A DNA stretch of 64,000 bases from assembly GCA_018238155.1 (NCBI GenBank), contig JABCTZ010000007.1:32001-96000 (forward strand), given 5' to 3'. Below, one piece after another: positions 28,985 to 31,730 of this stretch (position 1 is its first letter; the number at the start of each line of letters is the position of its first letter). The position numbers and the translations under genes are program-made. The notes under the pieces are model-generated. The model did not search any database and had not been told where the DNA came from. It saw only the letters and a program-made list of their open reading frames with translations. Source of the stretch: Candidatus Heimdallarchaeota archaeon. Lineage in GTDB: Archaea > Asgardarchaeota > Heimdallarchaeia > JABLTI01.

Positions 28985-29312
28985 AAACAAGAGAATATAA
29001 GCAAAGATGACTCTTTATTTTCATCTAAGCTTTTTCTTTCTATAGAGCTTTTTCAAATGTAGCCGATTCAAAGAATTTTCTTATATTACTCTATTACATA
29101 TGATTTTTCTTATCTTCTTTCTATCTATATGTAATTTCAAGATGAATTCTAAGACGTTTATATCAAAATTGACTCAATTTGAATTTGTTAAAATCTCATA
29201 CCCGTTTTTTTATAAATAAAATCAATTTTATATAGTCAAGAATCAGAAAACAGAATGATAAGAAAAGAAAATATTAGGGAAAATCTTTCCCTTAAAAAAT
29301 AAATATTTGAAA

Positions 29313-30263
29313 CTATGGATCAGCTACTTCCATAATTGTTTGTATTTCTGTTGAAGTAGTCTCTGAGGAAATAAATGAATATTTCTGAGGTTTTGTCTTC
29401 TTTTTATCTATGGATTTTACAATCCAAGCTTTTCCTCTTATAGCTTTCTTTAACCAATCTGGAAGAATCCAACCAAGATAAGCAAGAACTACTATAACAA
29501 TATTACATAGAATTCTAATCAAGTTCATGCCAACAACGAGAACACCATTACTTGTTATTACTTCTTGTGTAAATGTAACCGTTACTGCTCGTTCAAGTAG
29601 GATAAAAATGACTGCAACCAAAATAAGAGTGACTCCAGTTCTTGCCACTTTCTCCTTTAAATTTTTGCGAATAATTATTAACCTGTAAAAAACTCTTGCA
29701 AAGATGAACAAAATAATTGGAATGAAAAATAGTGCTGTAACCACATTGGGTATAAACTGATATGTATTAGTTCCTGAATAAATAACATATTGAATCATTC
29801 CATCTTGATTGAGTCCCCATCCTTGGGATCCATCGGCAATGAATTCACTTACTAATTCTGAAAACATTAATCCTGCTAAAATTCCCAAAAGTAGTGTCAA
29901 TAATATTGATATTGATGATTTTACGATATCATTATCTCGCAATATGTGACGGTTTGCAAAGAAATAGAAGAAAATGAAGCTAGTAAGATTTAGTGCAATA
30001 GAACCTATCTGGAAAAACCCATGAACTAGAACCGAATTATTTCCAAATATCATAGATGCATTTATCCAAGAACCCGCATTGGTCAATATATTTGCAAGAA
30101 TAAACATTCCAAAAAATAATAGTAATAGACCTGTTCCAACAGTTCTTTTTTTGATATAGTTTCTAATAAGAACACCAAAAAAGACGATGAAAAAAGTAGT
30201 TGCAAGAACACCTGAAATTAAGTAAAACCAGCCTGCATTTGTTAAACCTTCAAAAGCAACCAT
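29313..30263 (-). CDS. Seven-transmembrane protein with a C-terminal amphipathic helix
   Basis: 7 hydrophobic segments ending LAYLGWILPDWLKKAI; ATG 30263 lies directly after the GTPase stop. Confidence 0.75.
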   Translation of the reverse strand: MVAFEGLTNAGWFYLISGVLATTFFIVFFGVLIRNYIKKRTVGTGLLLLFFGMFILANILTNAGSWINASMIFGNNSVLVHGFFQIGSIALNLTSFIFFYFFANRHILRDNDIVKSSISILLTLLLGILAGLMFSELVSEFIADGSQGWGLNQDGMIQYVIYSGTNTYQFIPNVVTALFFIPIILFIFARVFYRLIIIRKNLKEKVARTGVTLILVAVIFILLERAVTVTFTQEVITSNGVLVVGMNLIRILCNIVIVVLAYLGWILPDWLKKAIRGKAWIVKSIDKKKTKPQKYSFISSETTSTEIQTIMEVADP

Positions 30264-30264
30264 A

Positions 30265-30801
30265 TTATCGTTCCTCCATTTTATCTCTAAACCAACTGAA
30301 CGACTCGATAATTCCATCTCCAGTTTTAGCAGATGTTTCAAAGACCGCCCATTCAATTTCATGTTCTGTTTCCATTAAACCAAAATTCTTTACCAACTCA
30401 ACTTGACTAATTCGATCTGGTAAATCTTTTTTGTTTAACAAAAGTAGAACAGGGATTTTTCCACCAATTTGTTTATCTAAAATGTTATAAAAAATAGCTT
30501 TTGTTTCATCAAAACGTAAATGGTCAATGCTATCAATAACATAAATCAGAGCATCTGTTTTCTCATTTATTTCTTGCCATATTGGGCGAAAATCCTCTTG
30601 TCCCCCCATATCGAAGATATTTATTTGAAGCCGAGGGAAATTAATGACTTCTCGATTGACCCCCATCGTTGGTGTTGTTTCCTTGAATTCTCCATGAACC
30701 AAGTAATTTATTATTGCCGTTTTCCCAGCTTTGTCAAGACCACAGATGGTAACTGTCACAGGTTTAGTTTTTTTTCTAAATAAATTAAGTAAAAAAGACA
30801 T
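30265..30801 (-). CDS. Arf/Arl-family small GTPase
   Basis: N-terminal amphipathic MSFLLNLFRK; G1 GLDKAGKT, G2 PTMG, G3 DMGGQ, G4 NKKD, G5 TSAK. Confidence 0.93.
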   Translation of the reverse strand: MSFLLNLFRKKTKPVTVTICGLDKAGKTAIINYLVHGEFKETTPTMGVNREVINFPRLQINIFDMGGQEDFRPIWQEINEKTDALIYVIDSIDHLRFDETKAIFYNILDKQIGGKIPVLLLLNKKDLPDRISQVELVKNFGLMETEHEIEWAVFETSAKTGDGIIESFSWFRDKMEER

Positions 30802-30817
30802 TTAACTTACCTCAGCT

Positions 30818-31318
30818 TTATTTCCAGAGATCGTTTTGCATAGACTCAGTAAATGCTTGACCAGGATCCTTTTCATCTTTTGCTTCGCTTGTGAAATCAA
30901 AATCCAATGTTACTATTGAGCTAATTTTTATTTTGACCTTTTTTTTACTTAACCCTTCATATAAATGTGGCAATATTTTTGTTATCATTTCAATATTGTC
31001 AATTTGATTCTTTTTTAACTCAGTAATTGTAAATAAGAAAAATTTTCGGATGTCTTCTCGTTTGTAATCTGGTCCATCAAATATTGCTATTAGGGAAGCA
31101 ATATTTCTTCTATCTGTTCCTGGCAAACTAAATATATAGCTTTCAAAAATACATCTGTCTGCTGTACTTGATGAAAAATCTCCTTCTTTTGAGCTCATAG
31201 GCATACTTTTCAATACTATTTGATTTAAAGTGCTTTCTGGAACACCTTTTGGGTGAACCTTAACTAATTCCAAGCCATTTTTTCCCATTTGTACTAAACA
31301 CAAACTAATTGGTTTCAT
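30818..31318 (-). CDS. Hypothetical protein with a possible uDENN/longin-like fold
   Basis: Pattern of beta-beta(HP)-helix(KSMP)-beta-beta-beta-helix judged by eye. Confidence 0.45.
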   Translation of the reverse strand: MKPISLCLVQMGKNGLELVKVHPKGVPESTLNQIVLKSMPMSSKEGDFSSSTADRCIFESYIFSLPGTDRRNIASLIAIFDGPDYKREDIRKFFLFTITELKKNQIDNIEMITKILPHLYEGLSKKKVKIKISSIVTLDFDFTSEAKDEKDPGQAFTESMQNDLWK

Positions 31319-31730
31319 TCGTTTTTCCTCGAGAATTCATAGGTGCATAATAGAATGTTTTTGTCGCTAAAAACAATCACTTCATTTATGTTTTTCTCAT
31401 ATATATACATAGCAGTTTCTGCAAAATTTTATCTTCACTGTATTTAATTAAAAGCATTCATTTTTATGTCGAAAAAGAACAATATTGGCTAAATAACAAT
31501 TCAATTTATTGTTGGAACGAAACACAGATTAATTATTTTTCTAAGAAACAGTATTCAAAGTCTTTCGTTATTTTTCAGTGAAATGTAAATAAAGTCCGAT
31601 AACCTTCATTTGAAAGATAGCTAACAGCTAGTTTTTTTATGTAATCTCTCTGAGAGAAGATATTTTTTTAAATGGCTTCATTAGGATTCATTAACATAAC
31701 AATAGTCAAAAATAAGAATATAACAATCAA

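Follow-up and report, generated by a model that had tools for sequence, protein, structure and literature searches.

Three adjacent minus-strand genes in a 64,000-nucleotide stretch of Candidatus Heimdallarchaeota DNA form a conserved functional unit, as judged by paralogy, synteny and co-divergence. The whole stretch, called the window below, has a G+C content of 33% and belongs to a genome of 4.08 Mb in 46 contigs. The first gene codes for a longin-domain protein of 166 amino acids that resembles NPRL2 and Npr2 (30818..31318; open reading frame and predicted fold), the second for an Arf-family small GTPase, probably of the ArfR type, with 178 amino acids (30265..30801; open reading frame and Pfam Arf match), and the third for a seven-transmembrane (7TM) membrane protein of 316 amino acids (29313..30263; open reading frame with its start taken from orthologues). 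Our best reading is that these genes constitute a co-transcribed, self-contained membrane GTPase-switch cassette, in which the 7TM protein would be a sensor or platform, the ArfR the switch and the longin its GTPase-activating protein (GAP), and we consider the chances that this proposal is correct to be about even. The initial annotation of the locus had likewise treated the genes as one receptor-GTPase-regulator unit, and the unity of the three genes is now supported by the three lines of evidence named above.

Six complete longin-Arf-7TM cassettes are present in the genome, each on one strand, all in the same gene order and in different surroundings, with genes that overlap or are separated by 1-30 nucleotides. 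The genome also carries a longin and 7TM pair without a GTPase gene, a divergent lone longin without the arginine discussed below, and a lone Arf. In a survey of 400 genomes of the phylum, full-length matches to the 7TM protein were confined to two families of one class: the family of the window, where 8 of 11 genomes have them (1-5 matches listed for each), and another with one copy per genome. Hence the three genes do co-occur elsewhere, both as paralogues and across two families, a point on which the initial annotation had staked its proposal. For 37 of the 38 strong 7TM matches in this genome and its relatives, a longin of the family is encoded upstream on the same strand, at a distance of no more than about 1.6 kb, and at the single exception the locus is cut by a contig end. 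Open reading frame scans place an Arf gene between the longin and 7TM genes in most of the loci fetched. The relatives carrying the cassette are Candidatus Heimdallarchaeota metagenome-assembled genomes, including one whose label, Bathyarchaeia, is probably wrong.

The three proteins have also diverged in step. Their distance matrices over 19 distinct cassettes are correlated with r values of 0.88-0.91, which none of 2000 permutations equaled, and the trees of longin, Arf and 7TM protein are congruent, with main groups common to all three. Therefore, the unit has duplicated and diverged as a whole without reshuffling. The 7TM protein has the lowest mean identity, 29%, while that of the Arf is 56% and that of the longin 50%.

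The pair lacking a GTPase gene (contig C21:5502-6928) is a two-gene variant, conserved in the genus, in which the 7TM gene directly follows the longin gene. Its distal RxKxW motif after the seventh transmembrane helix (TM7) is degenerate, which hints, from one or two independent lineages, that this motif relates to the Arf. In one relative the cassette Arf gene is reduced to a 73-amino-acid fragment, and in a second relative stop codons interrupt the 7TM gene of the two-gene variant; such copies are either decaying or wrongly assembled.

Judged by its sequence, the GTPase is a true member of the Arf family with intact catalytic residues. It matches Pfam Arf (PF00025) with an E-value of 4.5e-43 (147.2 bits against a cut-off of 22.3), and its best phmmer matches in the PDB are ARL1, Arf1, Arl3 and Arf6 (1e-33 to 1e-27). 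It carries the P-loop GLDKAGKT (residues 21-28), T45, DMGGQ (64-68, ending in Q68), NKKD (123-126) and SAK (157-159), and an alignment of 20 cassette Arfs reveals that GLDxAGKT, T45, the DxxGQ element from D64 to Q68, NKxD and SAK are invariant. The protein begins with a helix, MSFLLNLFRKK, in which M1, F3, L7 and F8 are invariant in the same 20 proteins and into which the Pfam and PDB alignments extend from residue 6. Residue 2 is a serine, and therefore there is no Gly2 to serve as a myristoylation site. The hydrophobic moment of the helix, 0.39, is not above that of shuffled sequences (2166 of 5000 reach it). Thus, the Pfam match and the alignment agree with the original description of a GTPase having intact G1-G5 motifs, a catalytic glutamine within DMGGQ and an N-terminal helix without Gly2. 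Asgard ArfRs have an N-terminal amphipathic helix, likewise without Gly2, that binds membranes (10.1101/2024.02.28.582541).

Other Arf-related proteins are encoded nearby or elsewhere in the genome. The lone Arf paralogue (contig C13:86298-86855) is 46% identical, has no longin or 7TM neighbors, and might serve the Arf-less longin-7TM variant. Within the window, a 317-amino-acid protein (55762-56715, plus strand) has an Arf/Rag-like GTPase domain followed by a C-terminal extension of about 130 amino acids, with 64 bits for Pfam Arf and 21 bits for Gtr1_RagA, just under the 22-bit cut-off; the genome codes for about eight such long Arf/Rag-like proteins, this one among them.

A longin-like fold had originally been assigned to the product of 30818-31318 by eye, and AlphaFold2 (AF2) modeling together with Foldseek and VIA searches bears this out. 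The AF2 model, with a predicted local distance difference test (pLDDT) score of 86.7, has the order beta-beta-alpha-beta-beta-beta-alpha-alpha that is typical of longin strands and helices. The N-terminal longin domains of NPRL2 and yeast Npr2 are the top PDB matches, with NPRL2 chain 9o5a_H as the best by Foldseek (E 2e-6). VIA scores NPRL2 at Z 13.8-16.3, the best with a root-mean-square deviation (rmsd) of 2.6 Å over 142 amino acids, and Npr2 at 13.8-14.1, followed by a Lokiarchaeal longin and NPRL3 (about 12), DENND10 (10.7), Lst4 (10-11), FLCN/FNIP (10.0-10.6), C9orf72/SMCR8 (9-10), DENND1 (9.0-9.5), and generic SNARE, adaptor and TRAPP longins (8-10). Moreover, the ESM Atlas structure match is to Npr2/NPRL3 (TM-score 0.70), and 19% of the members of the longin's language-model neighbor cluster carry NPR2. 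The predicted fold is therefore closest to the NPRL2 class by a clear margin.

The label given first, uDENN/longin-like, thus stands for the longin fold and for a fold of the GTPase-regulator type, but its uDENN part gives way to an NPRL2/Npr2-like assignment. DENN or uDENN identity is rejected; the protein stops after its longin domain, without a core DENN or dDENN part, and DENND1 and DENND10 score far lower than NPRL2. A search for longer, fused forms of the longin family found none, which is weak evidence. With Pfam and NCBIfam searched at E-values up to 10, singly and with all family members, neither the longin nor the 7TM protein found a family, and the scans of the two gave only sub-threshold chance matches (DUF3083 and DUF998 types). 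The longin family profile likewise gave only chance matches among PDB sequences.

About 57 close relatives of the longin are known, all from Asgard metagenomes. G12, G15, P23, the K37-S38-M39-P40 run and W165 are invariant, and a C-terminal DLWK is conserved. Of greater interest for function is R70, in the loop before strand 5, which is near-invariant among 42 longin family members and is kept in all cassette longins examined. An equivalent arginine also occurs in distant Asgard longins whose strand-2 motif reads G-P-E, and it is lost in two longin paralogues outside the cassettes. Arg78 of NPRL2 presumably occupies the same loop. These features make R70 a candidate arginine finger, and the longin a candidate GAP of the NPRL2 type on the strength of its predicted fold. 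The catalytic fingers of eukaryotic longin GAPs are NPRL2 Arg78, FLCN Arg164 and SMCR8 Arg147 (PMC8213707; PMC12290439), and a GP motif before strand 2 has been proposed as a mark of GAP longins (PMC12290439). G-P occurs at the aligned place in distant Asgard relatives and in one paralogue of the same genome (E 1.8e-11).

This paralogue is a 259-amino-acid longin (contig C15:198759-199538, minus strand) with a clear G-P before strand 2 and a C-terminal extension, which resembles the FLCN/SMCR8-type Asgard longins described in PMC12290439. It was used as a bridge to NPRL2, and neither the PDB nor Pfam gave a sequence match. The divergent lone longin (contig C22:9351-9923) is related to the family at E 1.7e-28, has glutamate at the place aligned with the arginine, and lies downstream of two six-transmembrane reading frames and a 312-amino-acid reading frame on the same strand. 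A role as a partner without catalytic activity, in the manner of NPRL3 or FNIP, is conceivable for it.

In other Asgard families, distant arginine-bearing longins, some with G-P-E, are encoded in operons with an Arf-family GTPase and membrane proteins (for example, loci L064:494-3261 and L072:442-3219). The GTPase has about 300 amino acids and a C-terminal extension, and there are two mutually related proteins of 210-230 amino acids with five to seven transmembrane helices (hhalign probability 91%) and no Pfam family. An hhalign comparison of the 7TM family with these membrane proteins revealed no clear relation (at most 56% probability, over two helices). Thus, this class of longin is recurrently encoded beside membrane proteins and Arf-type GTPases across Asgard archaea.

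The AF2 model of the third protein contains seven transmembrane helices, a beta-hairpin in the loop between TM4 and TM5, and a long helix extending from TM7 into the cytoplasm. Because lysine and arginine residues number 23 in loops 1, 3 and 5 and the tail versus one in the other loops, we assign an N-out, C-in topology. Among 28 distinct members of the family, 23 positions are conserved to at least 85%, and 22 of these 23 lie on the cytoplasmic face, whereas the outer loops and the membrane core vary freely. The conserved cytoplasmic motifs are KKRTxGT in loop 1 after TM1, YxFxxRHILxDxD at the end of TM3, an arginine and a glycine flanking the TM5-TM6 loop (R190...RxG), and YLGWxxPxW after TM7, followed by the basic KKxIRxKxW. 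The family is small: a word search yields 14 relatives, and a profile search yields 88 representatives in 1.84 billion proteins. Weaker profile matches were not counted as members: proteins of about 250 amino acids with seven transmembrane helices are found across the phylum, but their similarity to the profile is confined to its TM5-TM7 part (E 1e-5 to 1e-12). They have no Pfam family and mostly lack a longin or Arf neighbor, although a few have a small GTPase nearby.

Several early statements about this protein can now be refined. The seven hydrophobic helices followed by LPDWLKKAIRGK are reproduced by the model, and LPDWLKKAIRGK is part of the best-conserved motif of the family. Amphipathic character is seen in the segment after TM7, whose moment is reached by 169 of 5000 shuffles. 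AF2 models this segment, which had been likened to helix 8, at low confidence as a straight continuation of TM7. The Ser/Thr-rich tail is present, and it is conserved in one clade only. As had been noticed, there is no obvious retinal-binding lysine; the family alignment contains no conserved lysine in TM7, whose only conserved charged residue is R250 at the outer end, so that this hallmark of microbial rhodopsins is missing.

In the mechanism that we favor, the 7TM protein would reside in the cytoplasmic membrane as a sensor or docking platform. Each paralogue would receive an input of its own through the outer and transmembrane parts, which diverge fast, and the invariant cytoplasmic motifs would engage the soluble partners. 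The Arf would cycle between GDP and GTP, with the GTP-bound form binding the membrane through its N-terminal helix, and the longin would act as a GAP that turns the Arf off with R70 as its arginine finger, in the way that NPRL2, FLCN and SMCR8 act on Rag and Arf GTPases. The 7TM protein would either activate the Arf, like a guanine nucleotide exchange factor (GEF), or recruit the longin. Membrane proteins serve as exchange factors or recruiters elsewhere in this GTPase lineage, as with G-protein-coupled receptors (GPCRs) and G-alpha, Sec12 and Sar1, or SLC38A9 and RagA. For recruitment, the closest comparison is PQLC2, a 7TM transporter that recruits the C9orf72 complex, in which a longin pair functions as an Arf GAP by using an arginine finger (PMC8213707).

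A more specific version of this mechanism, in which each 7TM protein senses its own signal and acts as exchange factor for its own Arf, which the NPRL2-like longin then switches off, seems to us rather doubtful. If true, such a receptor-GTPase-GAP circuit, at work in the archaea most closely related to eukaryotes, would be the prokaryotic equivalent, and perhaps the precursor, of GPCR-G-protein signaling as well as of the lysosomal nutrient sensors that employ longin GAPs.

A number of observations weigh against the switch-cassette proposal. The place of the GP motif is occupied by G-L in the cassette longins, where the invariant G15 is followed by a near-invariant leucine, and none of the 42 longin members matches Pfam NPR2, NPR3, Folliculin or C9orf72-like at E-values up to 10. 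The presumed equivalence of R70 and Arg78 is drawn from loop position and an alignment rather than a residue-level superposition, and eukaryotic longin GAPs are heterodimers of two longin proteins, whereas each cassette has one longin gene. The model of the 7TM protein, built from 14 sequences, is of moderate confidence (pLDDT 74.8) and cannot be told apart from any seven-helix bundle by its PDB matches. Co-divergence is expected from linkage and co-duplication alone, and so it demonstrates a stable unit, not binding. A three-chain complex prediction with the 7TM protein as a partner scored 0.30 against a mark of 0.32, without controls, and speaks neither for nor against binding. Finally, the conserved longin-7TM variant indicates that the Arf is not indispensable to every unit.

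An alternative is that the three proteins form a unit for membrane targeting or remodeling, in which the 7TM protein is a resident receptor or cargo, the GTP-bound Arf inserts its helix, and the longin is an effector or adaptor that binds Arf-GTP. There are analogues: the SRX longin of SR-alpha binds SR-beta and the sigma and mu longins of adaptors function in Arf-dependent coats. The SR-beta-SRX complex (1nrj) and the AP sigma and mu longins are indeed among the structural matches of our longin, but they match far worse (Z 8-10) than NPRL2 (16.3), and an effector role leaves the conserved arginine unexplained. Furthermore, while longin and polytopic membrane proteins are the invariant core across the distant Asgard operons, and Asgard ArfRs bind membranes in yeast (10.1101/2024.02.28.582541; PMC11914678), the six divergent copies in one genome suit sensing better than housekeeping targeting. 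We therefore regard a targeting role as unlikely.

The initial annotation had called the 7TM protein GPCR-like, and in the strict form of this idea the protein would be a true GPCR relative that, once activated by a ligand, promotes nucleotide exchange on the Arf, while the longin would play the part of an RGS-like GAP. The best 50 Foldseek matches in the PDB are all GPCRs, class C first, but the fit is loose (best E 7.6e-4; TM-scores of 0.37-0.51 and rmsd of 6-9 Å). An exhaustive VIA search likewise gives GPCR Z values of up to 15.0, with 12.9 at rank 50, a level that, according to VIA, helical models commonly reach and within which microbial rhodopsins also fall (13.1-13.3), so that the scores are not above those of unrelated helical bundles. 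The N-out, C-in topology conforms, and motifs are conserved in the places of the GPCR motifs DRY and NPxxY, at the cytoplasmic ends of TM3 and TM7, but they read RHILxD and YLGWxxPxW instead. No 7tm GPCR family in Pfam matches the 7TM family at E-values up to 10, and the model has no separate helix 8. On the side of the GTPase there is a sub-threshold Pfam match of the Arf domain to G-alpha (40.6 bits), and a 2026 preprint reports Asgard-eukaryote structural clusters with GPCR annotations, including one of class C (10.64898/2026.10.28.762692).

Models nearer to the 7TM protein than any GPCR were found in the ESM Atlas, where bacterial HisKA_7TM (PF16927) modules fit with TM-scores of 0.59-0.65 by query and up to 0.76 by target, and rmsd of 3.5-4.2 Å over 229-251 amino acids. 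These are the input modules of histidine kinases, diguanylate cyclases and HD phosphohydrolases. A PF16927 scan of the genome matched none of the seven 7TM copies, and the family as a whole has no HisKA_7TM match. What stands of the GPCR-like description is an N-out, C-in bundle with GPCRs heading the PDB lists; what does not is any distinction of the fold from rhodopsins or precedence over HisKA_7TM. The predicted fold is accordingly a generic seven-helix bundle of the GPCR or rhodopsin style, which decides nothing about homology to GPCRs, and we hold the strict reading, a true GPCR relative acting on the Arf with an RGS-like longin, to be distinctly unlikely.

It has also to be considered that the 7TM protein might be a nutrient transceptor, a small-solute transporter that reports its substrate to the longin GAP and the Arf, as PQLC2 does with C9orf72-SMCR8-WDR41 or SLC38A9 with Rag and GATOR1. 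It fits this idea that the best structural match of the longin is the catalytic subunit of GATOR1 and that, as mentioned, a 7TM transporter is known to recruit an Arf-GAP longin complex (PMC8213707). A site for solute transport, however, calls for polar or charged residues that are conserved within the membrane core, and the family alignment contains none; nor was there a transporter-family match, or any PQ-loop or SWEET fold among the structural matches listed. A transceptor is thus very unlikely. That the genes are mere neighbors without shared function, for which one can say only that adjacency alone proves little, has a negligible chance of being correct given the six paralogous copies in differing surroundings, the conservation in two families and the co-divergence.

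The arrangement of the locus is as first described, with three minus-strand genes and gaps of 16 nucleotides (30802-30817, longin to Arf) and one nucleotide (30264, Arf to 7TM), as borne out by a reading frame scan and the placement of the 7TM start. The 7TM frame is open over 29313..30362 on the minus strand, 99 nucleotides upstream of the conserved start and overlapping the Arf gene. Because orthologues begin with the same residues, MVAF, and a Shine-Dalgarno-like GGAGGA (30272..30277, minus strand) lies 9 nucleotides before the ATG and within the 3' end of the Arf gene, we set the start at 30263; the GGAGGA, as a sequence reading, supports both this start and coupled translation. A 334-amino-acid protein call exists for this gene, and public annotations of it probably start too early.

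Further candidate signals on the minus strand were identified by reading the sequence. Directly past the 7TM stop codon is a T-rich tract that includes T6 (29294..29312), a candidate archaeal oligo-T terminator. Upstream of the longin gene, a 610-nucleotide, A+T-rich intergenic region (31319..31928), in which TATATATAT occurs about 80 nucleotides before the longin ATG, is a candidate for the promoter region of the entire unit. The flanking genes are of housekeeping types (FttA/aCPSF1, a PUA protein, an LSm protein and ribosomal protein L37e, whose divergent gene is the next beyond the spacer), and there are no signs of mobile elements among them. Also in the window is a gene for a 426-amino-acid protein (32963-34243, plus strand) with an N-terminal signal or anchor, a C-terminal transmembrane helix and an acidic/basic tail. 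Its weak matches to IFT52 GIFT (E 3.5e-5) and the OST48 N-terminal domain (4e-4) are both below cut-off, and from these it may be an OST48-like eukaryotic signature protein.

According to a preprint by Liu et al. (10.1101/2020.10.19.343400), Asgard archaea are rich in NPRL2-like longins, and arginine-bearing FLCN/SMCR8-type Asgard longins were noted in 2025, with the question of whether ArfR or Rag is the partner left standing (PMC12290439). A study of MK-D1, a cultured Lokiarchaeon, found that its GTPase genes as a rule do not share operons with genes for longin or roadblock proteins (PMC10933270), and therefore the pairing of GTPases with regulators is hard. The 2026 preprint describes Asgard 7TM and GPCR-like structural clusters without gene context (10.64898/2026.10.28.762692). 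We found no prior description of a longin-Arf-7TM operon in the literature searched, which does not cover all subscription papers. As far as we have found, the components are of known kinds, and their operonic union and paralogous expansion are new.

Asgard Arf GTPases are known to bind membranes, and they have had no assigned GAP, GEF or membrane partner. The cassette names likely partners for them, and the six matched triplets in one genome make the ArfR-longin question directly testable. If the 7TM protein controls the Arf, then receptor-GTPase-GAP logic would be placed before eukaryogenesis. Furthermore, if the longin is an Arf GAP, then the GAP class of GATOR1, FLCN and C9orf72 would be tied to an archaeal origin with a defined substrate.

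Among known systems, GATOR1 (NPRL2-NPRL3-DEPDC5) with Rag, and SEACIT with Npr2/Npr3 in yeast, provide the best longin match, a small GTPase acting at a membrane and, presumably, a counterpart of the arginine before strand 5. The cassette differs in having a single 166-amino-acid longin with no NPRL3-like gene, DEPDC5 or C-terminal NPRL2 domain, in its GTPase, which is of the Arf rather than the Rag type, and in the lack of a Pfam NPR2 sequence match. The C9orf72-SMCR8-WDR41 complex with PQLC2 joins a GAP of the longin class to an Arf-family GTPase and a membrane protein of seven helices (PMC8213707), and the cassette would have the same three kinds of component, whereas it has Z scores of only 9-10 to its longins, no DENN domain or WDR41, a 7TM protein without a PQ-loop signal, and its genes in one operon. 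The system of GPCR, G-alpha and RGS resembles the cassette in its logic, which links a 7TM protein to a GAP and to a GTPase from the Arf/G-alpha lineage, in its N-out, C-in topology and in its motifs at the cytoplasmic ends of TM3 and TM7; unlike that system, the cassette shows no sequence homology, a fold match that does not discriminate, and no G-alpha helical insert or G-beta/gamma, and its candidate GAP is a longin where the GPCR system has RGS.

The HisKA_7TM modules (PF16927) of histidine kinases, GGDEF proteins and HD proteins are the nearest in predicted fold and likewise join a 7TM input to a cytoplasmic output. In contrast, the cassette has no sequence match to them and its output, a GTPase and a longin, would be encoded unfused in neighboring genes; we know of no such GTPase-plus-longin output for the HisKA_7TM family. 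The Asgard ArfRs HodArfR1 and GerdArfR1 are, like the cassette Arf, Heimdallarchaeia Arf-family GTPases with an N-terminal helix that lacks Gly2 and that in the ArfRs is amphipathic (10.1101/2024.02.28.582541), although the ArfR studies name no GAP, GEF or membrane partner and do not treat the gene neighborhood. Finally, MglA-MglB and the Asgard operon of Rab-like, LAMTOR1-like and DENN genes use another GTPase family and another subtype of regulator fold and have no polytopic membrane partner, but they share with the cassette the placement of a prokaryotic small GTPase beside a regulator of the roadblock/longin superfamily (10.1101/2020.10.19.343400).

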